NCBI GenBank assembly: GCA_027460535.1
Contig: JAPZAR010000004.1
Coordinates: 1-32,000 of the forward strand
From: Candidatus Methanoperedens sp.
Lineage (GTDB): Archaea; Halobacteriota; Methanosarcinia; Methanosarcinales; Methanoperedenaceae
Length of the DNA: 32,000 nt
Direction: 5' to 3'
Shown here: piece by piece, positions 3,725 to 21,413 of the stretch
Layout: the number at the start of each line of letters is the position of its first letter
How positions within the stretch are numbered: position 1 is the stretch's first letter
The notes under the pieces: generated by a model
Database searches by the model: none
What the model saw: the letters and a program-made list of their open reading frames with translations, nothing else
Told to the model about the DNA's origin: nothing
Translations under genes and position numbers: made by a program

Positions 3725-3857
3725 AGTGAGTATAGCGGCCAAAGCGGCGGGGCAACACCTGTTCCCATTCCGAACACAGCAGTTAAGCCCGTCAACGTTT
3801 TGCATTGTACTATGATGTGCGAACTCTAGGGAACTGCAGAAAGTTGCTATGCTCACT
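3725..3857 (+). rRNA. rrf: 5S rRNA (coordinates include an extended terminal helix; the mature ends probably lie a few nt inside)
   Basis: The core GCGGCCAAAGCGGCGGGGCAACACCTGTTCCCATTCCGAACACAGCAGTTAAGCCC matches the archaeal 5S consensus. The terminal helix AGTGAGTATAGC pairs with GCTATGCTCACT. Confidence 0.88.
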
Positions 3858-4747: not shown

Positions 4748-4821
4748 GCCGTCGTGGCTTAGCTCGGCAAAGCGGCTGATTCGTAATCAGCAGATCGAGG
4801 GTTCAAATCCCTCCGGCGGCT
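4748..4821 (+). tRNA. tRNA-Thr (anticodon CGT)
   Basis: 74 nt. The acceptor GCCGTCG/CGGCGGC has one G:U pair. The anticodon arm is GCTGA-TTCGTAA-TCAGC, giving CGT. The T-arm is GAGGG-TTCAAAT-CCCTC. Confidence 0.9.
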
Positions 4822-5080: not shown

Positions 5081-6403
5081 TTATGTATCCTCCTCACTTC
5101 CGTGTTGGGTTTTGTCCGTGAGCGTCTTCATGAAGGCAATAATGGCTGCCTCATCTTTAGAGGTTAGCCCAAGATTTCCAAGCTCGTGTTTATTGACAGT
5201 ATCAGGTACTTCAGGTTCCGGCCATGGTACTCCTTTCCAGCCAGCCCCTGGTACATCTCTTGTATTATAGAAATGTACAATTTCTTCAAGAGACTTGAAG
5301 TAGCCATTGTGCGAGTAAGCTTTCACGAAATCCGGATAGGGTCTTTTGTCCACATTGCGGAGGGTGGGAACTTTCTGCCTGCCCAACTCAGGTTCAAACG
5401 CTGCCGGGTCATAAGTCTTGAGGAATCCTCCCAATCCGTAGTCTATGAAATTCTTGCCATCCGGATTATATTTATCTGGCATTTTATAGAATGGGTTCTC
5501 CGGGTTCTTTGGCACCCCCAGGTTATCGTGTGTGAAGTCTGTAAATAACGGTGGTGGATGACAGGCAACGCAGTTACCTCCTTCTCCAGGCCCTTTAATG
5601 CCATTATTATTGGTTGGAGCCATAAAAAGTTGAAGTCCATTCCATTCCTTATCTGTAAATTTATTTTTTGGGTCTAAGGTTTTTTTATCACCATTTCCAT
5701 TTAAACAAGCCTCTTTTTTACTTGTTCCCAGCTTATCAACGCATGTTTTCAGGTATTCGTCGTACTTGGAAGCAAACTGGCTCACTTCGCTTGATCTCTC
5801 GTATGCTGCGATGGATCTGACAATCCTCTCGTACGTCCCGTTCACATCGTTTACGCAATTCAGAGAACCTTTCCCCCAAACCTTTTCAAATAGTCCGGCA
5901 TATTCCGATTTGCTTACCTTGATGCAAACATCCCTAGCATTTGCATTGTTCTGTTCCAGAGGGTTCAGGAAAGGTCCCTGCGCCTGTTCAGTGAGAGGAT
6001 CCCCCAGAATCGTACCAGTTGCCCTGCTATCCCAGAACATGCCGCCAACCCACGTTTGACCATTATTGTCAAAGTATAAGATCGGGCTTTCTCCGCCATA
6101 TGCAGAAGAAGGTGGCTTACGGTTTCCGAAGAGATTATGTACAGCGCCAGGATAAACCGCTCCATGGGCATTAATCTTTTCATCTGGACCGGTCCATCCT
6201 ACCTCAGAGGAATGACAGAAGGCACACGATTGACCAGGTGGCGTTGAAAGGTCTTTATCAAAAAATAATTGTTTTCCAAGCTTTTCTTTAGGCGTTATCT
6301 TTGATTCTACACTCCTTACATTTGCAGCGCCCATAACAGGAGCGATTGAAGCCACAATTAAGGACAATAACAACAGCGAAATAATCGCTTTAATCGGTTT
6401 CAT
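5081..6403 (-). CDS. Secreted di-haem cytochrome c peroxidase (CCP/MauG family)
   Basis: 440 aa. N-terminal signal/anchor MKPIKAIISLLLLSLIVASIAPVMG. Two CxxCH haem-c motifs (CAFCH, CVACH). Family motifs GMFWD, VPTLRNV and YSHNG. ATG is preceded by GGAGG. Confidence 0.85.
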   Translation of the reverse strand: MKPIKAIISLLLLSLIVASIAPVMGAANVRSVESKITPKEKLGKQLFFDKDLSTPPGQSCAFCHSSEVGWTGPDEKINAHGAVYPGAVHNLFGNRKPPSSAYGGESPILYFDNNGQTWVGGMFWDSRATGTILGDPLTEQAQGPFLNPLEQNNANARDVCIKVSKSEYAGLFEKVWGKGSLNCVNDVNGTYERIVRSIAAYERSSEVSQFASKYDEYLKTCVDKLGTSKKEACLNGNGDKKTLDPKNKFTDKEWNGLQLFMAPTNNNGIKGPGEGGNCVACHPPPLFTDFTHDNLGVPKNPENPFYKMPDKYNPDGKNFIDYGLGGFLKTYDPAAFEPELGRQKVPTLRNVDKRPYPDFVKAYSHNGYFKSLEEIVHFYNTRDVPGAGWKGVPWPEPEVPDTVNKHELGNLGLTSKDEAAIIAFMKTLTDKTQHGSEEDT

Positions 6404-6949
6404 GTTCTATACCTCCCATTCTTATGTTCTATACCAATTATCCCCCAATGCTTGATGCAACTACCATATAACCTATTCAGGCTGAATCCCTAATGCATCT
6501 TGAATCATTTAATATACGGTTCTTCCGTAGCTATTTACCCCATTCAAAGATAGTATTGAAGTGACATTAAGTTTTCTGTTTTACTTCATTCGGCACTTCT
6601 TTCTCTTGGACTATGGCTACTTTTTTCAGGTTTCTGTTCTTCATCTCGTTTATGTATTCTGTCCAATCCAGACTGTAAGTCACCGACCGCCGTTTTGAAA
6701 AAACGGGGTATGGGTGCATGAGTGTAGCTCCATTTTGCTTGTTGTCGGGCTATTTATGAAATAAGGGGCACCGATATAGTTCGAGATATTCTGTTCAGAC
6801 ATTCCCATCACCTTGTTGAAGATCAGGTATTAGGGATTGATATAAGTTTGGATAGAAGGCAGAATCAATACCGCTGTTTGAGACGCGGTACGAACACACG
6901 GGAAATATACGAAAGTACTAATAAGCAGCAAAATGCAAAAGTGGATAAT

Positions 6950-7828
6950 ATGGTAAAAGTAGGTGTTGTCAGAAACAAGGATATAATACAATCCGTGAAA
7001 ACCGCTATCTCGCTTGCTGGAGGCATGAAAATTGAAAAGAATTCCGCTGTTCTTATCAGACCGAATGCGAACACAGCAGATTACCCTCCCGGCTCAACGA
7101 ATCCTGAAGTGTTAAAAGGGGCTATACGCGCGGTTAAAGAATATGATCCTGCAAAGATCATTGTCGCGGAGAAATCAATGACCACGCTGGATACATTGAA
7201 GGTGATGAAGTATCTGGGTCTGTACCAGGCAGCTGAATCGGAAGGAGTGGATGAGATCCTCTCTTTTGATGATGTGGAATGGAAAAAGGTGAGACCTAAA
7301 GAGGCCAGGTCATGGTCGCATGGTTTTTCAGTCCCCGCTATTCTTGATGAAATCGATTACTCGATCGCGCTCCCCATCGTGAAAACGCACTGGACTGCAT
7401 TATTCACCATTGGGTTAAAATCCCAGATAAGCATTACCTCTGACCCTGACAGGAGACAGCTTCCTCACGGACAGAACAACGATGAGCTCTTCGGCAATAT
7501 GATCGCAGAGACTAATCTTGTAAATAAACCCGATTTTTACATTTCAGATGCTACGAAATGTTTTGTAACAGATGGACCCAACATCGGGACACTGCGGGAA
7601 CCAGGTCTTGTCATTGCTTCAGATGATGTTGTAGCGAATGACGTGTTTGGTCTGGCACTTTTAAAGACACTTGGTACGATAGATAAAATACAGAACAGAT
7701 CGGTATGGGAGCAGCCCCAGATAAAAAGGGCAGTAGAACTTGGTCTTGGAGTTAAATGCAGGTCTGATATACAGATCAAAAGCGAAGGTGTGAAAGAGAT
7801 AGAGAATATTGCAGGTAATATTGCATAG
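6950..7828 (+). CDS. DUF362-family protein
   Basis: The MVKVGVV... N-terminus followed by VLIRPNANT...STNPEVLKGAIRAVKE resembles the DUF362 pattern. I place the start at ATG 6950; the 34 upstream codons from the TTG in the track look non-coding. Confidence 0.6.
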   Translation: MVKVGVVRNKDIIQSVKTAISLAGGMKIEKNSAVLIRPNANTADYPPGSTNPEVLKGAIRAVKEYDPAKIIVAEKSMTTLDTLKVMKYLGLYQAAESEGVDEILSFDDVEWKKVRPKEARSWSHGFSVPAILDEIDYSIALPIVKTHWTALFTIGLKSQISITSDPDRRQLPHGQNNDELFGNMIAETNLVNKPDFYISDATKCFVTDGPNIGTLREPGLVIASDDVVANDVFGLALLKTLGTIDKIQNRSVWEQPQIKRAVELGLGVKCRSDIQIKSEGVKEIENIAGNIA

Positions 7829-8182: not shown

Positions 8183-8695
8183 ATGGACTGGATCTCGCAT
8201 TTGCTATTTAGCCTTGCACTTGGTACAATCATATTGAAAGATATGACTCGCAAGAAAATGGCATTTGTGGCTGTTGCCGGTTTATTCCCAGATCTGGACA
8301 TACTCTGGCATCATCGCAGCGAGCTGCATTCACCACTGGTATTACTTGTATTTGCACTGTTGCTTGCGATCCAAAATCGCACTCTTTTCGCTCCATTACT
8401 CTTAGGCTTCTGGTCGCATTCTGCCCTGGACATTTTTCTATTTGATAACTCGAATCATACAATTAAGAATCTGGCAAATCAGGTTGTGGGCAATGACAGC
8501 ATATCCCAACATATCGAAGATAACATAATGAGATATACATCAGCCGATGGGATCATGCTCTTCTATCCATTCAGCGCTGAGAAGTTCTCCATAACCCTTG
8601 GCGAAGGGAGCTATGCGATTCTGGCAGGTCTTATCATAGTGATAGCTATAATTTCATTTATAGGGTTATATTTTAAAGAGTGCCGTGGGAAGTAA
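8183..8695 (+). CDS. Membrane-bound metal-dependent hydrolase-like protein (YdjM/DUF457-like)
   Basis: 170 aa with several TM segments. It has the MDWISHLLFSLALG start typical of this family, plus additional His/Asp (DLDILWHH, WSHSALD). Confidence 0.5.
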   Translation: MDWISHLLFSLALGTIILKDMTRKKMAFVAVAGLFPDLDILWHHRSELHSPLVLLVFALLLAIQNRTLFAPLLLGFWSHSALDIFLFDNSNHTIKNLANQVVGNDSISQHIEDNIMRYTSADGIMLFYPFSAEKFSITLGEGSYAILAGLIIVIAIISFIGLYFKECRGK

Positions 8696-9164: not shown

Positions 9165-9854
9165 TTAAACGAACGACCTTTTTTTTTCACTCATCTCTTC
9201 ATCAGTTTCACTAATCCTGACGAACTCATAAATTGAGACTGCAATTAAAGAGCCAATAATTGGGGCTATCAAATATATCCATTGATAGTTATATATTCCA
9301 CCAATTATCGCTGGTCCTAAAGACCTGGCCGGATTCATCGATGCCCCGGAAATTGGTCCCCCGAAAAGCGCGTCCATGGCTACGACACCACCGATCGCAA
9401 TACCTGTAACTTCGGGTTTAACCCTGGTATCCGATGCGACTGATATTATTACCAGCATCAGAAAGAAAGTCATTATAACTTCTAAAATAAATGACTGTTC
9501 CCATGAACCATTGGGCAAGGTAGCGCCAAGATTCCTGGCATTACCAAACATTAAATAAAGCACTGCACTGGCAAAGATCGCACCACCTATTTGGGCAGTA
9601 ATGTAAGGGAGCACCTCATTTTTCTTAAACCTCCCGACTGAAGCAAATCCAATCGTCACAGCAGGATTAAAATGGGCTTTAGATACATGTCCTAAAGAAT
9701 ATACCATAACTGCAACTACCAATCCAAATGTAATGGCAATACCAATCACCCCCAATTTTCCTGTTAATCTATCATCAATTATAGCACCCGTTCCAGCAAA
9801 AACCAAAGCAAATGTTCCGATAAATTCTGCTAGGATTTTCTTGAATAAGCTCAT
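9165..9854 (-). CDS. MIP-family channel (aquaporin/aquaglyceroporin; NIP/AqpN-like wording of the NPA boxes)
   Basis: 229 aa with six TM segments. Two NPA boxes: SKAHFNPAVTIGFA and GASMNPARSLGPAI. The start ATG overlaps the stop of the upstream GTPase gene (ATGA, 9851-9854). Confidence 0.88.
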   Translation of the reverse strand: MSLFKKILAEFIGTFALVFAGTGAIIDDRLTGKLGVIGIAITFGLVVAVMVYSLGHVSKAHFNPAVTIGFASVGRFKKNEVLPYITAQIGGAIFASAVLYLMFGNARNLGATLPNGSWEQSFILEVIMTFFLMLVIISVASDTRVKPEVTGIAIGGVVAMDALFGGPISGASMNPARSLGPAIIGGIYNYQWIYLIAPIIGSLIAVSIYEFVRISETDEEMSEKKRSFV

Positions 9855-10954
9855 ACCAAAATCCGATGATAAGGCTTGGGCTGCGGGGGACTGAAACTTT
9901 CTATTTTCAGTGCATTAAGTTTCGTATTATACTTTGAGGATACTATTTCCAGCGAATCCATAATAGATTGTTTCAGCTCTTTGGGACCGATTGCAACACG
10001 GGCATTTATTGCCATCTCTCCGGTTGCCGCTTTATCTGGAATTAAACCTGTGAAGCACACATCCTGATCAAATGAGACAAAGCTGGCTTTTGAAAAATTG
10101 TTCTTGTTGGTGAAATAGAGCTTGACATGGGCTATATCGCCATTGTTTTGTTTTATCATTGTTGCTGCGGTCATCAGAATATCCTTTATGAATTCCTTGA
10201 CTTTGAAATCATGTTTACTATCTACTTTCCACACGCCGTTTAACCATCCCATATTCGCCTCAGCGATGCCATAAACGTTATAGTCAACATGCGGATAATA
10301 ATAGTTTTTGTATTCATCATTCAATATTTTCTCAGCCAGTATATCCATCCCGGTTCCGTTCGCAGCTGAGATCAACATTACTTCAGCCCTGCTGTTGAGT
10401 TTCTTTAATATTCCTTTTATTTGTTCTATTTGAGCAGGGGACACAAGGTCTATTTTGTTCACTGCGAGAACCTCAGCTTCCTGTATCTGATGCGAGAACA
10501 GATATCCTGTGGATGTAACCGGGAAAGCTAAATCCATCTCAGAAGACATATTAAGTATGCGCTTAGCATCCACAAGTACGATGTGCGGCGCTATTTTGAA
10601 AGTATTTTTATAAAATTTTCTTATTGGCATATGCAGGGTCGCTGGGATATCTGTACAGCTTCCAACAGGCTCAGCAAGAATTATATCCGGGTTGGTCTTT
10701 TTGAGGATTTCCTCAGATGATGTCATAAAATCAGGAAACTTACAGCAGAAACATCCACCCAGAACTTCGCCAACTTCAAAGCCGTAATCTTTGACGATTT
10801 TGGTATCCACCAGTTCCTCTCCCTGATCATTCGTGATTATTGCCACACGCTTGCCGTAATCGGTTACTAATTTTTTTCCTATTTCTATTATAGTGCTTGT
10901 TTTACCTGCGCCAAGGAAACCGCCTATTATTCCAAATTTTACCATTTTTTTCAA
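9851..10954 (-). CDS. G3E-family P-loop GTPase, CobW/COG0523-like putative metallochaperone
   Basis: P-loop GGFLGAGKTS, the CxCC motif GGCFCCK ~50 aa later, NKID (NKxD) and a C-terminal domain. TTG 10954 lies 6 nt after GGAGAGGA. ATG 10945 is an alternative start. Confidence 0.75.
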   Translation of the reverse strand: MKKMVKFGIIGGFLGAGKTSTIIEIGKKLVTDYGKRVAIITNDQGEELVDTKIVKDYGFEVGEVLGGCFCCKFPDFMTSSEEILKKTNPDIILAEPVGSCTDIPATLHMPIRKFYKNTFKIAPHIVLVDAKRILNMSSEMDLAFPVTSTGYLFSHQIQEAEVLAVNKIDLVSPAQIEQIKGILKKLNSRAEVMLISAANGTGMDILAEKILNDEYKNYYYPHVDYNVYGIAEANMGWLNGVWKVDSKHDFKVKEFIKDILMTAATMIKQNNGDIAHVKLYFTNKNNFSKASFVSFDQDVCFTGLIPDKAATGEMAINARVAIGPKELKQSIMDSLEIVSSKYNTKLNALKIESFSPPQPKPYHRILV

Positions 10955-11012
10955 ATTTATCCTCTCCTTTCTAACCTGATGTCATTTTTGTTCTTCAATG
11001 CAGTAGCGGGTA

Positions 11013-12311
11013 TCATAGCAACTTCTCCGGCACCACCATTTTTACCGTGTTTGTCAAATTTACCTTCTCCTTTTCTAAATATGATTGTAACTCAGCAATA
11101 TCTGATGAGATCCTTGGCACATTCAAATTCCAATCTGGCCGACAGTAATCTCTGTTTTTAATACCGGAAGCAGGTATCACAACAACGGTTTTTTCAGTCG
11201 GGCTTATTCTGTTATCCTGGCATAGTCTTACCAGTCCGGCAACCGCCAGCCCTCCACTAAAATCTGGAAATATTCCTTCTTTCTTTGCGATCAATTCCGC
11301 ATATTCTACTCCTTCTTTATCCTCAATTGCGATACCATACCCACCATCCTTAATTACTCTAAGGGCATAAAGACCATCGGCTGGATCACCGACTCGTAGA
11401 TTTTCGCAGAGAGTCATGGGATTCCTTAATGGGGTTGGCATTTCTTTTCTGTGAACCAGAGCATCAACAATTGGAGCACAACCACTGGATTGAACTATAA
11501 AAAATTTAGGTAAGTCTTCTATTAGTGCTGATTCGTACAGTTCCTTAAACCCTAAATACATATTATAAGTGAGAGAGCCTGAGCCTTCTGGAATCACAAT
11601 GTTATCAGGTGATTTCCATCCGAGTTGCTCTGCTATCTCGTAGCTCAAAGTCTTATAACCAGAATTAAAATAAGTACGCAAATCCAGGTCAACAATCGGC
11701 AAACCCAGTTCGGGTTTTTCAGCGATTCTTGTAACCAATGTACATGTAGCCGGATCATTCCCATGGCATTGACAGTCTATATCTCCTTCTTGTCTATAAA
11801 CTTTCAATACTTGCGCTCCATACAATAATAGAGGGGATATTATTTCGGTGGGTGTCGTGTCCGGAACAAAGATATAAGATTTTAATCCAGTTTTCGCCGC
11901 ATGCGCTGCTACAGAGTCGGCAATATAATGGGTAGAAGCGCATCCTATTGCAGTGCTGTTAAATTCAATCGCTTTATTTATGGAGATACTTACGGAACGG
12001 TCTTCGTAAGATTGCGTTGGATTAGTACCTTCAAATTTTAAATGAAGATTTTTAATGCCGATAATCTCTCCAAGTCTATTACTTCTGAGTAAAGAAGTCC
12101 ATCCATCATTTAAATCCGCCATTCTTGTATCATTTAAAGGTAGGAACTCCAAATACCTCCACATGCTTGGATAACGACTCTCTATCTTGCTTTTTATGCT
12201 CCTGTCAATGTCTTCTATGCATGTATCCACAGGACCGTAACACTCACTACAGGATGTTATCAAAGCCTCAGGAAAAAGAGTTCCACAATCCCTACATTTT
12301 AATACGCCCAT
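11013..12311 (-). CDS. Threonine-synthase-like (PLP fold-type II) protein with an N-terminal zinc ribbon; the canonical PLP lysine is replaced by Glu
   Basis: Zn ribbon CRDCG...CSECYG. The ThrC block LHLKFEGTNPTQSYEDRSV reads ...NPTGSFKDRG in active enzymes. GCASTHYIAD stands in place of GCASTGNT. Start taken as ATG 12311 (MGVLKC), 2 nt after the MoaD-like stop. The longer track ORF overlaps the upstream gene. Confidence 0.75.
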   Translation of the reverse strand: MGVLKCRDCGTLFPEALITSCSECYGPVDTCIEDIDRSIKSKIESRYPSMWRYLEFLPLNDTRMADLNDGWTSLLRSNRLGEIIGIKNLHLKFEGTNPTQSYEDRSVSISINKAIEFNSTAIGCASTHYIADSVAAHAAKTGLKSYIFVPDTTPTEIISPLLLYGAQVLKVYRQEGDIDCQCHGNDPATCTLVTRIAEKPELGLPIVDLDLRTYFNSGYKTLSYEIAEQLGWKSPDNIVIPEGSGSLTYNMYLGFKELYESALIEDLPKFFIVQSSGCAPIVDALVHRKEMPTPLRNPMTLCENLRVGDPADGLYALRVIKDGGYGIAIEDKEGVEYAELIAKKEGIFPDFSGGLAVAGLVRLCQDNRISPTEKTVVVIPASGIKNRDYCRPDWNLNVPRISSDIAELQSYLEKEKVNLTNTVKMVVPEKLL

Positions 12312-12313
12312 TT

Positions 12314-12604
12314 TTATCCTCCTGCGAATGAAACTAAAAATAATATTTTGTCTCCGTCCATTAATCTGGTCTCGTACTCTCTGATAAGTCGGATGTCCAT
12401 CCCATTTACATAGCATCTGACATGTCTATTGAGGATTGAAGCCTCAGAAGGCAATAGCCTCTTTTTTAAGTTATCGTACTTATTACAGACTTCAACAATC
12501 AATTCGCCGATATTTTTTGCATCTGTACAAATTTTAATTTCCCTATGACCTGTCTCAGAGGAAATTATTCCAAAGAATCTAACAGATACTTCCCTAATCA
12601 TCAT
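12314..12604 (-). CDS. MoaD/ThiS-family ubiquitin-like (beta-grasp) sulfur-carrier-type protein with a C-terminal Gly-Gly
   Basis: ~96 aa with the pattern VRFFG...G...NG...LMDGDKILFLVSFAGG-stop. The start is ambiguous within GTGATGATG (12607/12604/12601), directly after GGAGAGGTGA. The GG codons GGAGGA act as the SD for the next gene. Confidence 0.75.
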   Translation of the reverse strand: MMIREVSVRFFGIISSETGHREIKICTDAKNIGELIVEVCNKYDNLKKRLLPSEASILNRHVRCYVNGMDIRLIREYETRLMDGDKILFLVSFAGG

Positions 12605-13530
12605 CACCTCTCCCTTGAAAGAAGAATCATTGTATAGATAGCATAATATGTATATTCAATATCTGGGGAGCCCATATTGCCAAATCCACCCCAGGGAGTC
12701 TTGAAATTAAGAATGCCGTCGGTGACTTTTTTTGCAGAAATTGAATTTAAAGACCCCAAAAGTGTGAGAGAATTAATTGCACAAAAAATTGAATTTAGGT
12801 CAGTTACTTTAGATCTCAAGTGATTTTTGAAACCAGCGTTTGACTGGCAATTCAATACAAAATCAACAACTTGTTTTTCATCAACCAGACTTAAACGATC
12901 TAATAAATATAATGTAAACAATGCCGATGTCGTCTCAACAAGATTCGGTTGCAAAGATTTATACGATGCCTTAAATCCTGCTTCCGGTGTTTTTAGATTG
13001 ATCAAAAATTCAGTGGTTTTATTAAGAAATTCTTTATCTAATAAATCAGCCTTATCTAGCAGGTACAAAGAGAAAACCCCATAAAATGTTGAGTATGCAG
13101 CGGGTTGTCTTGATTTTCCATCTTTCAGAAAACCTCCCTCTGTTGATTGTAATGAAATAATAAATTCACTGATTTTTTCGCAATCAAGATCATCGAAGTT
13201 ATCAGTTGCTATGGATGTTCCAATTCCACAAAAAGTATGAATTATATCAGGATATGCGCCCTTTCTGTATCCAAAACCACCATTTTTATCATAGCATGAA
13301 AATAAAAAATCTTTAAGGCCAATATGATCTAATATTTTTTCTTTTTCTAACATCTTGAAAGTTTCAATCGCAAAGAATGAATAATATAAATCCGAAGTAG
13401 TTTCGCCCAACCTTCCAACGAATCCACCATCTTTTTGTTGGAGTTTGTTAAATAAATTTTCTGTATTTATCAATTCCTCTTGAAGCTCCGATGATAGTTC
13501 TTTAGCCGTAGCTACGCATAAGCTCTTCAT
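12604..13530 (-). CDS. Prenyltransferase/squalene-cyclase-repeat protein (alpha/alpha toroid resembling the protein prenyltransferase beta subunit)
   Basis: 308 aa with six spaced repeats of the PFTB type: DGGFVGR...DLYYSFFA, NGGFGYR, EGGFLKDG...AYSTFYG, EAGFKAS, NAGFKNH, WGGFGN...YTYYA. The start ATG overlaps the upstream stop (ATGA 13527-13530). Confidence 0.7.
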   Translation of the reverse strand: MKSLCVATAKELSSELQEELINTENLFNKLQQKDGGFVGRLGETTSDLYYSFFAIETFKMLEKEKILDHIGLKDFLFSCYDKNGGFGYRKGAYPDIIHTFCGIGTSIATDNFDDLDCEKISEFIISLQSTEGGFLKDGKSRQPAAYSTFYGVFSLYLLDKADLLDKEFLNKTTEFLINLKTPEAGFKASYKSLQPNLVETTSALFTLYLLDRLSLVDEKQVVDFVLNCQSNAGFKNHLRSKVTDLNSIFCAINSLTLLGSLNSISAKKVTDGILNFKTPWGGFGNMGSPDIEYTYYAIYTMILLSRER

Positions 13531-14753
13531 GAAACCACCTTATTCAATCTGATTCGCTTGATTACTGTATCGATCTCAATATCCGTATTTTTGCATCCTC
13601 CTTTTAGCAAAGGTAAACCCCCGCTTGGTATTTTCAACGAATCTACAATTGGAATGGCTTTCATCAACGAATCCAGGCAGGCAATAGCGAAAAATGCATC
13701 AGCTTTTTTTTCTTTGAGCATTTTTAGCACTACCGTTGCTCCCTCTGAGATATAGATAGTATAACCTAATTCCTTAGCAACCTTAACAATGGGATTAATC
13801 TTGCATTGCTCACTTCCGCATTCCTCGCAGATTAGTTGTAAACCAGTTTCCAGTGGCTCATAGTGGTTTCGGCATTTTTCAGCGTCACGAAGGCAATGAG
13901 GTACTATTAAAACTCTTTTATTATAGGGAATCTTACTGAAGTCTTCACTCAAAATCTGTGTCTTTAATTCTGCAATGGTGAAATCGAGGAACTTTGACGA
14001 TAAACTCAGTTGATTTAGGATTTTAGCTGCGGTTGCATCAACGCAATTAATGTTCTCTTTATTTGTGAAAATGAGTTCACGTATTTTCTGTCTATCTCCC
14101 AGATCAGGTATGTTTGATATCTTCTCTGTTCTGCCAGGATATTCAAAATCCTTTATTGTGAATACTGCTGCTTCTGAAGATCCCTCTCCCTCTCCACCAG
14201 CAACCCATTTTTCCGTAGATTTTGCAAAAATAATGGCTTCTTCAGGACAATCTCTTGCACATGCAGGACAGTTGTCTTTACAACTATATGGATTTGCTAC
14301 TTTTACTCCAACTTCATCCTCCTTGATATCAAATACATCAAAAATACAGAAGTCATAGCAGCTGCCACATCCAGTACATCTGTCATAATCAATTACAGGA
14401 AACCATTCATGAATTTCTTCAATATTTTCCCCATTTCTTGCAGGTAATATATTTTTCAGCTCAGTAATCACTTCTTTCAGACTTAAGTCCCTCATGTTAA
14501 CATGAATCAACTCTCCCTTACATGAGTTGAAAAGCCATTTTTGCGATCTCTGGTAACAAGCGAGTGTTACAATTTTGTCATTTTTCATCAAAGAATTCAA
14601 AAAAGGTAAGCCAAGTTTTGGGCTGCATAGATAAGGATGTTCACTTATGTATTTGACATCGTGGTTCTCTCTTATATATGTACTGAGCTTACTAATGTCT
14701 GCCTGGTTGAAAAACCCTCTTCCTCGACACTGACATATTACAATTCCAACCAT
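13527..14753 (-). CDS. Multi-domain Fe-S protein: Cys-containing N-terminal domain + 2x[4Fe-4S] ferredoxin domain + C-terminal DUF116-like Cys-rich domain
   Basis: 408 aa. Ferredoxin motifs CTGCGSCYDFC and CKDNCPACARDCP. The C-terminal PHCLRD...C...CEECGSEQC...ISEGAT pattern resembles DUF116. The N-terminus IVICQCRG...LC...TLAC resembles the Cys-rich domain of HdrA/Qmo-type proteins (weak). Confidence 0.6.
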   Translation of the reverse strand: MVGIVICQCRGRGFFNQADISKLSTYIRENHDVKYISEHPYLCSPKLGLPFLNSLMKNDKIVTLACYQRSQKWLFNSCKGELIHVNMRDLSLKEVITELKNILPARNGENIEEIHEWFPVIDYDRCTGCGSCYDFCIFDVFDIKEDEVGVKVANPYSCKDNCPACARDCPEEAIIFAKSTEKWVAGGEGEGSSEAAVFTIKDFEYPGRTEKISNIPDLGDRQKIRELIFTNKENINCVDATAAKILNQLSLSSKFLDFTIAELKTQILSEDFSKIPYNKRVLIVPHCLRDAEKCRNHYEPLETGLQLICEECGSEQCKINPIVKVAKELGYTIYISEGATVVLKMLKEKKADAFFAIACLDSLMKAIPIVDSLKIPSGGLPLLKGGCKNTDIEIDTVIKRIRLNKVVS

Positions 14754-14764
14754 AGTTACCCCAG

Positions 14765-15988
14765 CTATCTGGATATAATTTTCATTACGCCAAGTAAACC
14801 CAATTTGCGTATTAAGAGTCCTTTTTTCGACATAAAGGGATTGTAAATTTGGCTGTACTCAACACTGGAAAACATATTCTCCATTATTTTTTTTATCTCA
14901 CTATTTTCCTCGGTCAATTCCAATATGGCATCCATCATGCGATCGTAAAATTGTGGGTTATGCCCATACATCATTTTTGCCATTTTGGCAGAATATTTCA
15001 AATCATTATCAATCAATTCAGAGTGACAAAGTTCAGTATAACGCCCCAAGCTTTTCTCGGAGTAATCCCCTTCATTTATCACAGATGCTGCCAACTCCGC
15101 TGATTTTAATGCATAGTAAATACCTTCCCCAGTCATGAAATTAACCAGGCCTCCTGCCTCTCCGACAAGCAAAAAACGATTTCCATGAAGCCTATCCACG
15201 TAATTCTCTGCCATCGGGTGTCCATACAATGATCTCCCATCCATCATCATTTCTTTGGATCCTTTCAATTTTTGGGATATAATTGGATGGTTATGTATTA
15301 TTTCAAAGAGTTTTTCTTTCATTCCTTTTGCATTTTTAGTTTTTTCAGTGAAACCAATACTAACCCCTTCTTTTTTTGGAAAAATCCAGAAATAACCATT
15401 AGTGGTTATATCCCCGTCCCAGTAAATTTCGGGTCCGTCAATTTTCTCTTCTATCGTACTGGAAGGAAGTTCCAACTCATGAGAGATAGTTGTAAAGTAC
15501 CTTGGCGGGGTAACACCAATGAATTTGTAAAGATAAGAAGACGCTCCCCAGGCACCAACCAGAATCTCAGCTTCATATTCCTGACCTCCCTCTAACTTTA
15601 CTGTCACTCCACCATTCAGTTTAATAGAATCTACTTTGCTTTTATCTAAAACTTCAACGCCTTTTTTCTCTGCCCTATCAATTAACCATGCATCAAATTT
15701 ATTCCTGTATACCACTATTCCTTTTTTTCCATCGGATTCAGAGCACGAGACTGAAAACTTCTTGGTTTTTGTATAAAGCGTTTCTTTTGTTACTTCCCTC
15801 TCCACAACCTCGGCCGGTGGCTCTCCGACCAATTTCAGGCAGCGAGTACACATTCCTCCCCCACATGGTTTATACCTGTTCTTACTCTTTCTTTCAACAA
15901 GCAGAACATTAAGACCCTTTTCAGCTAATTTCAATGAAGTGAAACTTCCAGCTGGTCCGCCTCCCACTACAATCGCATCATACTTCAT
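14765..15988 (-). CDS. Geranylgeranyl reductase (GGR)-family FAD-dependent oxidoreductase
   Basis: Rossmann motif YDAIVVGGGPAGS. GGR-family motifs YKPCGGG, YFWIFPK and LLVGEAGG. ATG 15988 lies 5 nt after GGGAGGA. The 15 upstream track codons were discarded. Confidence 0.8.
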   Translation of the reverse strand: MKYDAIVVGGGPAGSFTSLKLAEKGLNVLLVERKSKNRYKPCGGGMCTRCLKLVGEPPAEVVEREVTKETLYTKTKKFSVSCSESDGKKGIVVYRNKFDAWLIDRAEKKGVEVLDKSKVDSIKLNGGVTVKLEGGQEYEAEILVGAWGASSYLYKFIGVTPPRYFTTISHELELPSSTIEEKIDGPEIYWDGDITTNGYFWIFPKKEGVSIGFTEKTKNAKGMKEKLFEIIHNHPIISQKLKGSKEMMMDGRSLYGHPMAENYVDRLHGNRFLLVGEAGGLVNFMTGEGIYYALKSAELAASVINEGDYSEKSLGRYTELCHSELIDNDLKYSAKMAKMMYGHNPQFYDRMMDAILELTEENSEIKKIMENMFSSVEYSQIYNPFMSKKGLLIRKLGLLGVMKIISR

Positions 15989-16136
15989 TTTTATCCTCCC
16001 GAATACTACCTGTGCTCCATATTCTCCAGGCAAACATCATCTTGATTGGGTTATATATTACTAACCACGTATAATATTCCATTAATTCTGCAATATTAAT
16101 TGAATCATATAATCTTGTATAACCTATCTAATATTA

Positions 16137-16988
16137 GTGTGCTTATCATACTCACTGGCCGTGGGATTTAAGGAAACAATCAACCTTTTGAATGCATCAT
16201 CCATAGTGTCGATTTCGGGAGGTCTAAGGTTTTATGTAGCTTTCCTGCTCGCTGGAAAAAAACCTGAGATTTCATTATGTATAGCTGCGATCTTAATGGT
16301 TTACGCAACATACACATTTGATAGAGCAGTTAAAAGGAAAGAAGATGAGATCAACCGAATAGACGAGGAGAATGCCAATAAAAATCTTGCTCTTTTCATA
16401 GTTTTTGTCTCTTCTTCAGCTGCCATTTTGATTCTTGCTGAGAATGGGATATCACCGATCCTAGTTTTTTTCCCCTTTACAATGGGTTTAATGTACAGCA
16501 AAGGAATCAATATCGGAAGTTTTTCACTTAATCTGAAGCGAAGGCTAGGAATTAAAAATTGTTTTGTAGCATTTACGTGGTCATTCACAATCATCGCCCT
16601 GGTGCGTCCTCATGGAAGTCCACAGCTTATTTTAATATTTGTTTTCTTTTTTTCAAAAAGTTTTATAAATACTATTATATTTGATTTCAAAGATGTAACT
16701 GGGGACTCATATGCCGGTCTTACAACTTTCCCACTGCATTTTGGAGAAGCGAGTACAAGGTTAATGCTTCAAATAATACATTCCTCTCTTCATTTAGCCC
16801 TTATTGCGCTTTCTTTATTAAACCTTGCCGAATTTGAATTATTCATTCTATTTTATGGCTGGATAGTGGGAATAATCTATATATTCCTGTACGCCACTTC
16901 TAAAAAAACTATTTCCAGGAGCCTGGTCATACATGGAGAGTGGGCTCACATGCTCTTGTTCAGGAGCTTTGTGGATCAACTTTTTTAG
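16137..16988 (+). CDS. UbiA-superfamily intramembrane prenyltransferase (divergent first Asp-rich motif)
   Basis: 283 aa with ~8 hydrophobic helices. The second motif FDFKDVTGDSYAG followed by LTTFPLHFG is typical of the UbiA family. The first motif is atypical (YTFDRAVKRKEDEIN). The track start is GTG, so the start is uncertain. Confidence 0.7.
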   Translation: MCLSYSLAVGFKETINLLNASSIVSISGGLRFYVAFLLAGKKPEISLCIAAILMVYATYTFDRAVKRKEDEINRIDEENANKNLALFIVFVSSSAAILILAENGISPILVFFPFTMGLMYSKGINIGSFSLNLKRRLGIKNCFVAFTWSFTIIALVRPHGSPQLILIFVFFFSKSFINTIIFDFKDVTGDSYAGLTTFPLHFGEASTRLMLQIIHSSLHLALIALSLLNLAEFELFILFYGWIVGIIYIFLYATSKKTISRSLVIHGEWAHMLLFRSFVDQLF

Positions 16989-17754
16989 AACGTTTTTCAA
17001 AGTATTTGAACAAATCATTCCCCCATTCTAAAGCACTTTTTTCATAACTTATTATATTATTATAGAAATCATAGGTGCCATTATTAAAGAAAAGCCTCAT
17101 GGATAAAAAAAGATCGGTCACAGTAAAGGTAAATTCGATTTTCTCGTTGAATACCATTACCTGTACATTATTATATTCCAGACCTTTTTCAAGTTCGGCA
17201 GAGTAATCTTCCTTCATTTTCTTAAATACATCTTCAGTCAATATGATTGAAATTGGCATGCCTCTGTCTGCCAGCATGTTAATGTATTTCGGGTAATCGG
17301 GATGCAATACTGATGAAACCCCTTCTATGCAATTCGATTGTAAAAGATTTTTAATGTACTCATTATGAGGTTTAAAAATCTCGGTCGGAGTACCTCCAAA
17401 AATACGATAATTTCCTAATTCATTAAGACGCATTTTGAATTCGTAAGGTATTCCATTAATTTTATGTCTTTTCCAGAATTCAATATCTTTTTCAAATATG
17501 TCCAGAGTCTTGATAAGGTGATTATAAGAATGAGTTACTATATACCCCATTTCAGTCAAAAAGTAGTTCTTACCTTCCAGGTGAATTAAATTATTCTTTT
17601 CCAGCTTTTTTATTTGAGGAATTATCTCGGGAGATGTTACTCCCAAACGATCTCTTATTTCCTGCAGCGTTTTTGGCTCTCTCTGCAACATAAATAGAAT
17701 ATCGCGCCTTTTTCCAGAAAAAGTCAGTAGACTTAATAATCCTTTACCTTCCAT
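16960..17754 (-). CDS. Winged-helix transcriptional regulator with a FilR1/DUF1724-type C-terminal domain
   Basis: ArsR-like wHTH (KRRDILFMLQREPKTLQEIRDRLGVTSPEIIPQIKKLEKNNLI) plus a ~170-aa C-terminal domain, as in methanogen Msr/FilR1-type regulators. ATG 17754 follows GGAGGG. The 3' end overlaps the UbiA gene convergently by 29 bp. Confidence 0.7.
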   Translation of the reverse strand: MEGKGLLSLLTFSGKRRDILFMLQREPKTLQEIRDRLGVTSPEIIPQIKKLEKNNLIHLEGKNYFLTEMGYIVTHSYNHLIKTLDIFEKDIEFWKRHKINGIPYEFKMRLNELGNYRIFGGTPTEIFKPHNEYIKNLLQSNCIEGVSSVLHPDYPKYINMLADRGMPISIILTEDVFKKMKEDYSAELEKGLEYNNVQVMVFNEKIEFTFTVTDLFLSMRLFFNNGTYDFYNNIISYEKSALEWGNDLFKYFEKRSKKVDPQSS

Positions 17755-17991
17755 TTTTTTCCCTCCGGTTTTTTTTAAACAGCCCCCTATCTGGTTGAAA
17801 AAACTCTTTTTCCACCCTATTTGATTATACTGATTAATCTTAAGCTGCAATATTTATACAATCATTGTAATTAGCATTATATAATTGTTTTTTGACTCTA
17901 CAAATCATATCATAGTTAAAATTAGTTACATATGCACTGCGCCTCCAAAGTGGACAACAAGTTAAGTTATGGTTCACTATGAGGGAAATAT

Positions 17992-18312
17992 ATGGGAAAA
18001 ATAGCAGGAAGAAGACATACACGGGAATTCAAAATCTCTATAATTCGGGAACTTGAAAGTGGAAAGAATCCGGTGCAGCTCAGTCGTGAGAACAATATCC
18101 ATCCGACCATGATATTCAGATGGAGATTGGAATATCGAAAAAATCCAGAATCCGCTTTTAGTGGCAATTGTAATACCTATAAAGAAACTGTAAACAATCA
18201 TGAACTGGAAAGGCTTGTCGACAAGCTATATTCTGAGAATGAATTTTCAAAAAAAGTCTTGATTATCTTGGAAAAGAGAATACAGAAGAAACAGATTCCA
18301 AAGGCGGAGTGA
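17992..18312 (+). mobile_element. Solitary IS3-family transposase orfA (HTH subunit); no orfB/DDE domain, so an IS remnant
   Basis: RRHTREFKISIIRELESGKNPVQLSRENNIHPTMIFRWRLEY is the IS3/IS911 OrfA-type HTH. It is followed by a heptad Leu region and an A7G slippery run at 18249-18256. The -1 frame closes after ~24 codons, and a convergent ABC gene starts its 3' end at 18347. Confidence 0.7.
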
Positions 18313-18346: not shown

Positions 18347-19009
18347 TCACGAGTAGTCTATTTTCCCATCTCTGAATTTGATTATTCTATCAACCTTCTC
18401 ACCTATCTCATGGTCATGTGTCACAATAATTATGGTTACCCCATGTTCTATATTCAGTTGTTTGAATAGTGCCATTATTTCATAGGAGGATTTTCTATCA
18501 AGATGACCCGTAGGCTCATCTGCTAACAATATCTTTGGGTTATTTGCCAGTGCCCTTGCAATAGCTACGCGCTGCTGCTGCCCACCTGATAACTCATATG
18601 GCTTATGACGGATGAAATTGCCCAATCCGACATCTTCAAGAAGCTTATTAGCTCTTCTTGACGGGTTTGGTTGGGCAGCTAGCATCATTGGAAAAATCAC
18701 ATTTTCAAGCGCATTTAATTGATTAAATAGGCTAAAAAATTGAAAGACAAAACCAAAATTGTCTAACCGAAATTTTATCTTTTTATCATCATTTAGTTCA
18801 GTTACATTTGTGCCATTTACCAATATCTCACCTGACGTATGCGTATCCAACAATCCTACCATGTTTAAGAATGTTGATTTACCGCTACCGGATGGACCCA
18901 TTATTGCCACAAATTCTCCCTGGTCAATAGAAATATTTATTCCATCCAGAGCCATGACTCTTACCTTTCCCATTAAATAGATTTTTGCGAGATCTTTTGT
19001 CATGATCAT
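18347..19009 (-). CDS. ABC transporter ATP-binding protein (MacB/LolD-type)
   Basis: Walker A GPSGSGKST, signature LSGGQQQRVAIARAL, Walker B LLADEPTGHLD. ATG 19009 lies just after GGTGGTGA and 1 nt after the permease stop. Confidence 0.9.
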   Translation of the reverse strand: MIMTKDLAKIYLMGKVRVMALDGINISIDQGEFVAIMGPSGSGKSTFLNMVGLLDTHTSGEILVNGTNVTELNDDKKIKFRLDNFGFVFQFFSLFNQLNALENVIFPMMLAAQPNPSRRANKLLEDVGLGNFIRHKPYELSGGQQQRVAIARALANNPKILLADEPTGHLDRKSSYEIMALFKQLNIEHGVTIIIVTHDHEIGEKVDRIIKFRDGKIDYS

Positions 19010-19010
19010 T

Positions 19011-20192
19011 CTATTCACCACCAAGGGCCTTTATTAAATTCGTTTTCCCTGCTATCATAGCAGGATAAACACCAGCAAGTAAGGAGATACTGAGGGAAAC
19101 CACAGTGGAGCGCAATAAAAGGTATAGTCCAAACCTTGCACCTAAATAATCTTTGGCAAGAGGATCATAAAAAGGATGAGCTTCGAGGTATCTTATGCCT
19201 ATATAACCAAGTACATCTCCTCCGACAACTCCTGTTATCCCGAAAAACATAGCTTCAATTAAAAAAATAGTAACCAGCAGAGAATTCTTGACCCCAATAG
19301 CTTTCAAGATTCCTATCTGTCTCCTTTTATTAATGATACTTACATAGATTATCACTGCCACTGAGACATTTGCAGCAATAAGGCTGATTAACACGATAGT
19401 GTTTCCTAGTTGCTGAATCGTTGCGGAAGAACTAAGCGTGCTTTCAACTTCATCTTCCCATGTTTTCACATTCGAAACTTCAAGTTCATTTTTAATAGTT
19501 TGTTTATATTCTTGTGCAATATTTTTATCGGTTAACTTGATAAGAATTACAGAAGCTTTATCTTGTATGCCCAGTTCTCGTTTAGCTTCTTCTTCTGGAA
19601 TATATATGGTATTTGTATCTATGTCAGGAATGCCTGTATGAATGATGCCTTTGACGTTGTAACTTTTACTTTTTCCATTCTCAAAAGTTAAGGTGATATC
19701 ATCCCCTGTATTGATACCCAGATCCTCTTGTATTCTGAATGAAATTAAGACTTCATTGCTGTCCCGTGAACTTATAGGCTTACCAATCTCAACCTTTTCT
19801 AAAATTGTAGAGACCTTCTCTTCGTTGTCTGGATTTAAAGCAATTATATTCACAGATTTAGATATCCCCTTTTTTTCAATTACTCCCCCGAATTGCAGAC
19901 GTGATGAATAAGCTACTACATTACTCATACTTTCGAGCTTCATTTCTTTAATGCCAAGTCCTTCAATGTATTGCTTGTCTACATCGGGGTAAATCGTCAT
20001 ATGACCTGTATTTGCGTTGACGCTATTATCTACTAAATCAAGTACAATGCCATCGGATATCCCATTTATAATTATAACATTCGCAGTTCCAAATGATATA
20101 GCAATGAATAGGAACAAAAAAATTTTCTTATCTTGAATTATATCTCTTTTTGCAAAAAAAAAGGCAGTTCGAAGTTCTGAACCAGTGCCCAT
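19011..20192 (-). CDS. ABC transporter permease, FtsX/MacB type
   Basis: An N-terminal TM, a ~250-aa extracytoplasmic domain and three C-terminal TMs (the FtsX-domain pattern). ATG 20192 lies 5 nt after AAGGTGA. GTG 20201 is the alternative start in the track. Confidence 0.8.
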   Translation of the reverse strand: MGTGSELRTAFFFAKRDIIQDKKIFLFLFIAISFGTANVIIINGISDGIVLDLVDNSVNANTGHMTIYPDVDKQYIEGLGIKEMKLESMSNVVAYSSRLQFGGVIEKKGISKSVNIIALNPDNEEKVSTILEKVEIGKPISSRDSNEVLISFRIQEDLGINTGDDITLTFENGKSKSYNVKGIIHTGIPDIDTNTIYIPEEEAKRELGIQDKASVILIKLTDKNIAQEYKQTIKNELEVSNVKTWEDEVESTLSSSATIQQLGNTIVLISLIAANVSVAVIIYVSIINKRRQIGILKAIGVKNSLLVTIFLIEAMFFGITGVVGGDVLGYIGIRYLEAHPFYDPLAKDYLGARFGLYLLLRSTVVSLSISLLAGVYPAMIAGKTNLIKALGGE

Positions 20193-20197
20193 GATAT

Positions 20198-21409: not shown

Positions 21410-21413
21410 GATA

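Follow-up and report, generated by a model that had tools for sequence, protein, structure and literature searches.

This locus raises the question of what an archaeon would do with an operon that sets a geranylgeranyl reductase (GGR) family flavoenzyme beside a cysteine-rich Fe-S protein, a prenyltransferase-like barrel, a ubiquitin-like protein (Ubl), a relative of threonine synthase, a COG0523 GTPase and a membrane channel. The operon lies in a 32,000-nucleotide stretch of Candidatus Methanoperedens sp. (assembly GCA_027460535.1, contig JAPZAR010000004.1, positions 1 to 32,000), the whole of which is referred to below as the window. The data show that it is a conserved, selected, co-oriented and translationally coupled unit. 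We put roughly even confidence in the interpretation that it specifies an accessory isoprenoid-lipid tailoring pathway, restricted to Ca. Methanoperedens, with an Fe-S-driven GGR step; each individual step proposed for that pathway deserves much less confidence than the overall reading. Isoprenoid biosynthetic gene clusters are a known kind of system, and it is the composition of this operon that is new.

Seven genes run along the minus strand from 15988 to 9165, with spacings, read directly at the junctions, of +11, -4, -4, +2, +58 and -4 nt. The first operon gene in this genome encodes the GGR-family flavoenzyme (407 aa; 14765-15988). It is followed by genes for a multi-cluster Fe-S protein, here called Fer4-DUF116 (408 aa; 13527-14753; PF01976 and Fer4 models), a stand-alone alpha/alpha barrel of the prenyltransferase-beta type (308 aa; 12604-13530; PF00432), a Ubl of the ThiS/MoaD/SAMP type (94-97 aa, depending on the choice of start codon; 12314-12607; PF02597), a ThrC/MetM-like fold-type II protein with a Zn ribbon (432 aa; 11013-12311; PALP), a COG0523/CobW-type GTPase (367 aa; 9851-10954; PF02492) and, as the last operon gene, a NIP-like channel of the major intrinsic protein (MIP) family (229 aa; 9165-9854; PF00230). 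ATGA overlaps join Fer4-DUF116 to the barrel (13527-13530) and the COG0523 gene to the MIP gene (9851-9854), and the junction of barrel and Ubl is a 4-nt overlap, GTGATGATGA. The Ubl gene ends in GCA GGA GGA TAA and the ATG of the ThrC-like gene stands 2 nt further on, so that the Gly-Gly codons spell GGAGGA. GGGAGGA precedes the ATG at 15988, which is most likely the GGR start in preference to a TTG upstream. On the plus strand, a divergent gene for a UbiA-family membrane prenyltransferase (283 aa; 16137-16988; PF01040) converges with the minus-strand gene of a FilR1-type winged-helix regulator (16960-17757; PF08350). The two overlap by 29 nt, as they do in sister loci. A preliminary description of this DNA had reported this packing with its gaps and overlaps, as well as the divergent UbiA gene and its overlap with FilR1; the open reading frame (ORF) list and the direct reading of junctions agree with it throughout, and every one of its domain calls was reproduced with Pfam and NCBIfam profiles.

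The operon and UbiA share a divergent promoter region of 148 bp (15989-16136; 30% G+C) in which ATTAATT occurs at 16081 and 16095. The length, AT-richness and double occurrence that had been described are all correct, but the repeat itself carries no detectable meaning: shuffling of the intergenic region produced a direct 7-mer repeat in 72% of cases, which is chance level, and the two copies are not both kept in orthologous intergenic regions. A role for the repeat as an operator was rejected on these two grounds. What is conserved, in the loci L001, L010 and L004, is a block of about 100 bp around the ATTAATT copies that includes an invariant TAATATATA. The GGR gene of the window stands directly behind this promoter block.

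At least four further Methanoperedens assemblies share this gene order, among them Methanoperedens sp. BLZ2 (L010), GCA_012026795.1 (L001), GCA_033854095.1 (L004, the same as L011) and a metagenome contig (L035). The proteins of the operon are 73-90% identical to their counterparts in the syntenic loci, and UbiA and FilR1 55-63%. A database protein named as from Candidatus Methanoperedens sp. matches the ThrC-like protein with 100% identity. The ratio of non-synonymous to synonymous substitution rates (dN/dS; Nei-Gojobori method, against L010 and L004) lies between 0.08 and 0.22 for all nine genes, with values of 0.11-0.13 for GGR, 0.08-0.10 for the Ubl and 0.10-0.17 for the ThrC-like gene. 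All operon genes are under purifying selection, and the proposal that they form one unit conserved beyond this genome is upheld by this result together with the synteny.

The operon is nonetheless narrowly distributed. A search of 5.8 billion proteins recovered no barrel relatives of 27-73% identity and no ThrC-like relatives of 41-82% identity, gaps indicating that only a narrow clade of Methanoperedens has this form of the operon (type 1). One more barrel relative, at 37% identity, came from an exhaustive search of 1.84 billion cluster representatives. The type-1 barrel is present in only two GTDB species-representative genomes, which argues for an accessory role. Gene content differs between strains, and the distribution within Methanoperedens is patchy.

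The GGR protein exceeds its family threshold (TIGR02032, 205.7 bits against a cut-off of 158.8), and alignment with its best PDB match, 3oz2 (E 5e-21), shows the GxGxxG (VVGGGPAGS), KPCGGG and YFWIFP (YFWIFPKKEG) motifs. It falls far short of the equivalogs for digeranylgeranylglycerophospholipid (DGGGPL) reductases, scoring 98 of 580 bits for NF041080, 86 of 780 for NF041160 and 72 of 700 for NF041385. As judged by these profiles, the scores show that it is not of the housekeeping DGGGPL-reductase type.

Directly downstream of GGR, after the 11-nt gap, comes the gene for Fer4-DUF116. This protein consists of an N-terminal alpha/beta domain with four cysteines, a 2x[4Fe-4S] ferredoxin and a Cys-rich DUF116 domain (PF01976 at 3.5e-31). 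Nineteen cysteines are invariant in its alignment, as are two motifs of the CxxCxxCxxxC type. The AlphaFold2 (AF2) model is moderate (pLDDT 69.5), and its comparison with the PDB gave no significant fold match and weak REC/flavodoxin-like ones. This agrees with Makarova et al. 2015 (PMC5898192), the sole published analysis of DUF116; beyond that paper, the literature searched on the domain amounts to one figure legend.

A GGR followed by an Fe-S protein invites the explanation that the locus carries out ordinary saturation of archaeol or glycerol dialkyl glycerol tetraethers by GGR and a ferredoxin, the remaining genes being unrelated and merely co-transcribed. The arrangement is the known one of MA1484/MA1485 in Methanosarcina, where, according to the passages of PMC8941075 and PMC12042123 that cite Isobe et al. 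2014, ferredoxin MA1485 is needed for full saturation of archaeal lipids by MA1484, and the GGR motifs are intact. Against this stand the equivalog scores, the patchy distribution, the tight coupling and equal selective constraint of all seven genes, and the fact that the Fe-S protein, a DUF116 fusion, accompanies the barrel in both archaea and bacteria at loci that have no GGR. We regard a housekeeping function as quite unlikely: the score of 98 of 580 bits, the presence in two GTDB genomes and the strain-variable gene content indicate that the locus is not a housekeeping one.

The third protein of the operon is recognized as a prenyltransferase-type barrel by profile (PF00432 at 6e-37) and by its AF2 model (pLDDT 93.6), whose closest folds in Foldseek are the beta subunits of RabGGTase and GGTase-III, with a TM score of 0.79 to 6o60_B and 1dce_B. 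An alignment of the zinc ligands shows that the Asp is kept (D47), that an invariant tyrosine (Tyr49) replaces the Cys ligand, and that His98 is not conserved in the family. Without a zinc site, the barrel fails a defining feature of protein prenyltransferases, and that identity was rejected on the strength of the ligand alignment. A class II cyclase identity was also rejected, as the family has no conserved DxDD; the DNFDDLD of residues 110-116 lies in a loop, and neither the nearest relative, P0160, nor the wider family has it. The members of this family are stand-alone proteins of about 290-340 aa with the signatures DGGFxGRxGxSDLYYT and DxEYTYYG, and in bacteria they adjoin cyclases resembling squalene-hopene cyclase (SHC). 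No partner alpha subunit was found among the window ORFs scanned or in related loci.

These features bear on the proposal that the operon lipidates a protein, either because the barrel prenylates one or because the Ubl C-terminus is conjugated to a lipid in the manner of Atg8. The nearest barrel structures are indeed protein prenyltransferase beta subunits and the Ubl does end in Gly-Gly; moreover, a LolCE-like permease and a surface protein with a PGF-like tail, encoded nearby, suggest that lipid-anchored proteins are handled here. The absence of a zinc site and an alpha subunit weakens the hypothesis, however, since the zinc-ligand Cys has become an invariant Tyr and the His is not conserved. 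The window encodes no alpha subunit, E1, E2 or JAMM protease, and in bacteria the barrel is partnered with a terpene cyclase and no Ubl. Lipidation appears very improbable to us.

The bacterial relatives occur in an ordered operon of five genes: Fer4, radical S-adenosylmethionine (SAM) protein, a fusion of DUF116 to polyprenyl synthase (DUF116::PPS), the barrel, and a two-domain SHC-like cyclase with the motif DADDT. About 60 bacterial loci carry the five genes in one order (among L012-L029 and L040-L114; for example, L042:10001-16105), the radical SAM protein being mostly a 466-aa SPASM-like type. The loci were found with two independent anchors, the barrel against genomes and Fer4-DUF116 against metagenomes. 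For the genome scan a 4-sequence barrel alignment was used, a 16-sequence alignment being too diverse; the barrel adjoined the SHC-like cyclase in 15 of 19 loci and DUF116::PPS in 12 of the 19. In the metagenome scan, 33 of the 42 loci of at least 5 kb had a match to the barrel model between synthase and cyclase, and most of the others end before that slot. Where a host is labelled, it belongs to Planctomycetota, Verrucomicrobiota, Brocadiaceae, Armatimonadota or Bacillota; the majority of the metagenome loci are without such a label. L022 has, just upstream of the operon, a gene for a full-length CobW-like protein (32% identical to that of the window), and so do L040 and L093; it is accompanied in L040 by a MIP gene and in L022 by a GcvH-like gene. 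In L022, a Planctomycetota metagenome-assembled genome, a cysteine desulfurase gene of the NifS/IscS family lies directly downstream of the SHC-like operon on the opposite strand (12760-14064, minus).

The Fer4 domain, the DUF116 domain and the barrel are thus encoded side by side in both the window operon and the bacterial operon, whose synthase, radical SAM protein and two-domain cyclase are all missing from the window. By sequence comparison, the data show that the core of the archaeal operon is homologous to that of the bacterial terpenoid operon. The bacterial operon has been noticed before, in the triterpene-cyclase literature, with its product unsolved. Santana-Molina et al. 2020 (PMC7306690) and a 2025 paper (PMC12414744) describe the function of the 'SHC-like' clade as undemonstrated and its context as suggestive of a non-squalene precursor. 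The archaeal link is new in the searchable literature. The earlier statement that no characterized pathway has the composition of the window operon also stands for that literature, in which we found none; the gene set is not peculiar to this type of genome, however: its Fer4/DUF116/barrel core is common to the widespread bacterial operon.

Sister loci in Methanoperedens carry genes that the window lacks. Between promoter and GGR they encode a polyprenyl diphosphate synthase of the IdsA/GFPP-synthase type, whose first Asp-rich motif (FARM) has the canonical form in L004. In L001 and L002 this motif is degenerate, HNDIIN standing in place of the expected HDDIMD (L001:6689-7537, L002:6593-7537); the synthase seems to be dispensable or decaying in part of the clade. 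A product chain length read from the residues ahead of this motif is no more than a lead. Also encoded in the sister loci is a protein resembling class II cyclases, about 380-410 aa long, that has a signal or anchor at its N-terminus and the catalytic motif DLDDT, DMDDT or DTDVT. L004 has, in addition, a gene for a B12-domain-like radical SAM protein, which, like the radical SAM protein of L006, shows weak similarity to MiaB/RimO. The window operon is a reduced version of these loci.

A second type of Methanoperedens cluster (L030, L031, L005 and L036) encodes a DGC protein, a NIP-like MIP, Fer4-DUF116, a GcvH-like protein that keeps its lipoyl-Lys, and a cyclase-like protein, and includes a protein named as from Ca. 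M. nitroreducens. Identity to the window proteins is 51-52% for the MIP (measured in L005 and L036) and 41-46% for Fer4-DUF116. The position held by GcvH and DGC in this type is occupied in the window by the Ubl, ThrC-like and COG0523 trio. In a variant (L007-L009), a barrel of 340 aa with 35-37% identity stands between DUF116 and GcvH. The recurring unit across these clusters is a MIP, Fer4-DUF116, an alpha/alpha toroid and a small carrier protein. In L030 and L031 the second-type genes are followed by a tightly packed block that runs from a Get3/ArsA-family ATPase gene to ABC transporter genes, also present in the window (see below); L005 and L036 end short of it. Throughout L030:8693-16948 the genes of this type overlap or nearly touch, up to and including those for a CC-motif protein, a surface protein, an FtsX permease and an ABC ATPase.

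The small carrier protein of the window is a Ubl by profile (PF02597, 35.9 bits against a cut-off of 22.5, 1.1e-8), with the C-terminus FAGG and a TIGR01687 score of 46.3 bits, just under the cut-off of 49.5. It aligns over its length with the ThiS proteins of MetM-type clusters. No cognate E1 (ThiF, MoeB or UbaA) was found in the window ORFs scanned or in the syntenic loci, although the genome may encode one at another place, and the preliminary statement that the window has no E1/ThiF gene holds for all ORFs of at least 100 aa.

Its neighbor is a ThrC-like protein (PALP at 1.3e-49; PDB match 2zsj, 9e-42) that keeps the Zn-ribbon cysteines C6, C9 and C21 and reads NPTQSYEDR where its relatives read NPTxSFKDR. 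The residue that forms the Schiff base with pyridoxal phosphate (PLP) in other members, K103, is Lys in all 104 aligned relatives and Glu in all seven Methanoperedens orthologues, which confirms the earlier reading of a ThrC-like protein without its PLP lysine. The phosphate loop STGN has become STHY (G128/N129 to His/Tyr) in the same seven orthologues, and 39 of the 118 columns that are conserved at 90% or more in the 104 Lys-bearing relatives are replaced and fixed in them. The gene is no pseudogene, a possibility rejected by the fixed substitutions and the dN/dS of 0.10-0.17. The protein is thus predicted to be unable to carry out lysine-dependent PLP chemistry, yet it is under purifying selection.

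The nearest Lys-bearing relatives (38-41% identity) point to where this pair came from. Three of them (38-40% identity) were placed in their genomic context, and each belongs to a PALP-ThiS-(x)-ThiF cluster that has a gene for homoserine kinase, TusA or a class V aminotransferase close by. This context, taken with the Ubl alignment, indicates that the Ubl/ThrC-like pair descends from a sulfur-transfer pair. A thiocarboxylate route from O-phosphohomoserine to homocysteine by MetM, MetO and MoeZ is described in bioRxiv 10.1101/2024.10.14.618325, through which we cite Hasebe et al. 2024. To judge from the alignments, the Ubl and ThrC-like genes of the window are a degenerate MetO/MetM (thiocarboxylate homocysteine synthase) pair. 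PALP-ThiS-ThiF clusters also contain the ThrC-like proteins of L032-L034 (from Bathyarchaeia-like archaea, Gemmataceae and others), which are annotated as threonine synthases and are probably mis-annotated MetM-type homocysteine synthases.

Descent from a thiocarboxylate sulfur-transfer pair is the first point in favor of a rival that overlaps with the isoprenoid reading, namely that the product is a prenylated molecule that contains sulfur, be it a quinone-like cofactor or a thio-lipid. Under this rival, a Ubl thiocarboxylate (or lipoyl-GcvH in the sister cluster) would be the sulfur donor for a prenyl substrate bound by the barrel or the remodeled ThrC-like protein, with Fe-S or radical SAM chemistry assisting. 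The GcvH of the sister cluster keeps its lipoyl-Lys, the bacterial relatives always carry a radical SAM protein, and in L022 these are joined by GcvH-like and CobW-like genes and the adjacent NifS-type desulfurase; the weak MiaB/RimO similarity of the L004 and L006 radical SAM proteins is in keeping with the same idea. However, the L022 desulfurase is on the opposite strand and was seen once, genes for an E1, a desulfurase or a rhodanese are all missing from the window, the catalytic Lys of the ThrC-like protein is gone, and no sulfur-bearing isoprenoid has been reported for Methanoperedens in the searchable literature. We consider a sulfur-bearing product possible, although we doubt it.

The COG0523 protein (PF02492, 99 bits, 2.5e-28) has the P-loop GGFLGAGKT and the CxCC motif in the form GCFCC; its C-terminal half has no CobW_C match, and the protein scores far under the cut-off of every named-subfamily equivalog (ZigA, CobW, YjiA). 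The MIP (PF00230, 190.7 bits, 3.9e-56; TIGR00861, 175.8 against 171.25) has the motifs NPAV and NPAR and an ar/R filter, read off the alignment, of F/A/A/R. By the ranking of its best matches it is NIP-like, plant NIP2;1 being the first in the PDB (E 2e-49), with AqpM at E 2.5e-33. The divergent UbiA protein, which is syntenic in every type-1 locus, is recognized by PF01040 (47 bits against a cut-off of 34.2) and falls just under the cut-off of NF010117 (222.8 against 238); its second Asp-rich motif, DFKDVTGD, is present and the first is atypical (DRAVKRKEDEIN). The FilR1 regulator (PF08350 at 7.6e-36) keeps its arrangement with UbiA in L001, L004 and L010.

Beyond FilR1 lies the block mentioned above (18347-22322, minus strand), which consists of genes for the Get3/ArsA-family ATPase (21414-22322), a 118-aa protein with the CC motif FQIPSCC and a weak thioredoxin-fold match (21080-21436), a 293-aa surface protein with an N-terminal signal (20198-21079), a LolCE-like FtsX permease (19011-20201) and an ABC ATPase (18347-19024). 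The two ATPases and the permease were assigned with Pfam, NCBIfam and PDB matches. The C-terminal tail of the 293-aa protein, PGF followed by a hydrophobic segment and Arg, looks PGF-CTERM-like by eye and matched no model. The block follows the cluster in L001, L035 and L030, with translational coupling to the cyclase-like gene in the last of these; the Get3/ArsA and LolCE-like ABC block belongs to the conserved neighborhood. Next to it is a divergent gene for an HTH_10 regulator (22391-23098, plus strand; PF04967 at 2.8e-21), 80% identical to the L001 gene at the same relative position. In the window a transposase-like ORF (17992-18312, plus strand), read by eye as an IS3-type OrfA, separates FilR1 from the block, and the gene order on either side of it differs from that of L001 and L035. 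This suggests a rearrangement, mediated by an insertion sequence, through which the ArsA-to-ABC block changed sides relative to the cluster.

With a NIP/AqpN-type channel, an ArsA-family ATPase, a thioredoxin-like CC-motif protein, DGC, and the Cys-rich DUF116 and COG0523 proteins all in view, the locus might instead handle a metalloid (As or Sb) or a reactive small solute, the isoprenoid genes being secondary. In favor of this, NIP2;1 is the best match of the MIP, and the ATPase aligns with E. coli ArsA at 3e-58; archaeal Get3 is, however, an equally good match for the ATPase (3ug6 at 3e-54, and TIGR00345). The MIP, DUF116, GcvH, cyclase-like and ArsA-like genes of L030 are contiguous and overlapping, and a linkage of DUF116 to an ArsA-like gene in Methanococci is noted by Makarova et al. 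(PMC5898192). There is, however, no ArsR, ArsB/Acr3, ArsC or ArsM gene; DUF116 in bacteria is fused to polyprenyl synthase and the barrel there stands beside a terpene cyclase. The 118-aa protein, tried as a candidate ArsD, was rejected, as it had no Pfam or NCBIfam match and no significant pairwise BLAST similarity to an approximate E. coli ArsD sequence. In our judgment metalloid handling is an unlikely primary function.

For an isoprenoid theme, which the preliminary description had also proposed, the evidence converges: the GGR passes its family threshold with motifs present, UbiA is a prenyltransferase by profile, the barrel has the prenyltransferase-beta fold, and the sister loci add a polyprenyl synthase and a DxDD cyclase. 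The fusion of DUF116 to polyprenyl synthase in bacteria, also found in PMC5898192, supports the isoprenoid link, as does the recurrence of CobW-like and MIP genes upstream of the bacterial operon. The center of the system would be a three-part core, common to the SHC-like operon of Planctomycetes-Verrucomicrobia-Chlamydiae (PVC) and other bacteria, that consists of a multi-cluster ferredoxin domain, the Cys-rich DUF116 domain with a predicted redox role, and a prenyl-binding barrel of non-zinc type.

In the accessory lipid-tailoring pathway that we favor, a polyprenyl diphosphate would come from a synthase encoded in the cluster in sister genomes and elsewhere in this one. The divergent UbiA protein would attach the chain to an acceptor, the barrel would hold the chain, or both. 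The GGR would then saturate double bonds of the chain, and Fer4-DUF116 would bring in the low-potential electrons, much as MA1485 does for MA1484. Presumed no longer to make homocysteine, the Ubl and its Lys-less MetM-like partner would most likely serve as carrier and docking protein, handing thiocarboxylate sulfur or an activated C-terminus on to a new acceptor; in the second cluster type a GcvH-like and a DGC protein stand in their place. The COG0523 GTPase may load metal into a Cys-rich partner, the NIP-like channel may pass an uncharged small solute, and the Get3/ArsA and LolCE-like ABC block could handle a membrane product.

Several observations weigh against this pathway. The evidence for it consists of sequence, synteny and models. 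Searches with tblastn found no remnants of a polyprenyl synthase, cyclase or radical SAM gene in the window. DUF116 has no assigned function and its model is moderate, and the likeness of Fer4-DUF116 to MA1485 is one of gene arrangement. The NIP-like channel, the ArsA-family ATPase and the many Cys-rich proteins fit a metalloid or sulfur theme as well. The second cluster type, finally, keeps the MIP, Fer4-DUF116, the carrier and the cyclase-like gene and has no GGR, UbiA or synthase, and the MIP-DUF116-carrier unit may therefore serve something besides chain saturation. Literature searches found no link of methanophenazine or quinone biosynthesis to the operon genes and nothing relevant on terpenoid genes in Methanoperedens; the searchable literature, which leaves out most subscription journals, contains no description of the archaeal operon or of its tie to the bacterial SHC-like operon.

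A bolder proposal, which we offer as a tentative one with the chances well against it, is that Fer4-DUF116 and the non-zinc barrel are a previously unrecognized enzyme system that works on regular (non-squalene) polyprenyl chains, reductively or by adding sulfur, and is fed by Ubl thiocarboxylate or lipoyl-GcvH carriers and the COG0523 GTPase. In PVC-type bacteria the SHC-like cyclase would turn the chains into polycyclic polyprenoids, and in anaerobic methanotrophic archaea of the ANME-2d group the GGR would saturate them. Such an enzyme system, if real, would define a new class of membrane lipids, and it would be a candidate biological source for the orphan polyprenoid biomarkers of the geochemical literature.

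The narrower interpretation has consequences of its own. Ca. Methanoperedens oxidizes methane anaerobically in a nitrate- and metal-dependent manner, and its lipids serve as biomarkers, the interpretation of which would be affected by an accessory, strain-variable isoprenoid pathway. The archaeal operon is tied to a bacterial SHC-like operon whose product is an acknowledged gap in the triterpenoid-cyclase literature (PMC7306690 and PMC12414744), and it adds clues to the common Fer4/DUF116/barrel core in the form of a GGR, a UbiA protein, a pair derived from a sulfur carrier, a COG0523 GTPase and a NIP-like channel. For DUF116 (COG1852), widespread and without an assigned function, the operon context gives a testable starting point. 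The ThrC/MetM-type protein, which has lost its catalytic lysine and is strongly constrained beside a Ubl partner, is a candidate pseudoenzyme or neo-functionalized protein.

The remainder of the window contains several other features. Positions 1-3852 hold an archaeal rRNA operon, with the 3' part of the 16S gene, a spacer tRNA (775-847), 23S (1005-3579) and 5S (3731-3852); another tRNA is found at 4748-4821. The stretch from the rRNA operon to the cluster contains genes for a protein of the di-haem cytochrome c peroxidase/MauG family (5081-6403, minus strand), a DUF362 protein (6848-7828, plus strand) and a YdjM-family membrane protein (8183-8695). On the far side, 25775-28753 (minus strand) encodes a TOBE/HTH regulator, an ABC ATPase, a permease and a PBP_like_2 protein, a set for uptake of an oxyanion of the molybdate, tungstate or phosphate type.

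The operon can be compared with five known systems. In Methanosarcina acetivorans MA1484/MA1485, as in the window, a GGR-family flavoenzyme is immediately followed by an Fe-S protein; the window partner differs in being a 408-aa multi-domain DUF116 fusion, the window GGR is not of the DGGGPL-reductase type by NCBIfam scores, and the pair sits in a longer conserved operon. The beta subunits of protein prenyltransferases (RabGGTase, GGTase-III, FTase) have in common with the barrel the alpha/alpha toroid (TM 0.79, RMSD 1.5 A over 262 columns), the Prenyltrans repeats and a central cavity lined with aromatic residues, whereas the barrel is a stand-alone protein of about 300 aa that has its own signature motifs and neither the zinc-binding Cys nor an alpha subunit. 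The MstE-type meroterpenoid clusters (Moosmann et al. 2020, as presented in PMC12414744) have a monodomain class II cyclase, and the sister Methanoperedens loci resemble them in combining a polyprenyl synthase, a UbiA protein and a single-domain class II cyclase with DxD(D). The Methanoperedens cyclase, however, has a signal or anchor, no genes for biosynthesis of an aromatic acceptor were seen, and the window has no cyclase.

MetO/MetM, a system related in logic to CysO/CysM, likewise pairs a ThiS-type Gly-Gly Ubl with a neighboring ThrC-like protein of fold type II that has a Zn ribbon at its N-terminus. The window pair departs from it in the Glu that replaces the Schiff-base Lys, the STHY loop and the 39 of 118 conserved columns that are replaced, as well as in its reversed gene order, the lack of ThiF/MoeZ or Mec nearby, and a context that is isoprenoid and not amino-acid related. 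The bacterial SHC-like operon is homologous over the ferredoxin domain (31-50% identity to the window), DUF116 (26-38%) and the barrel (24-27%, full-length alignment). The archaeal system adds to it a GGR, UbiA, a Ubl and the Lys-less ThrC-like protein; its Fer4 is fused to DUF116, whereas the bacterial DUF116 is fused to the synthase, and its cyclase has a single domain of about 380-410 aa with a signal or anchor, in contrast to the two-domain bacterial cyclase of about 600 aa. Both systems, the archaeal one in its sister loci, nevertheless include an in-cluster polyprenyl synthase and a class II cyclase with the catalytic Asp motif, and radical SAM, CobW-like and MIP genes recur in some loci of the SHC-like system.

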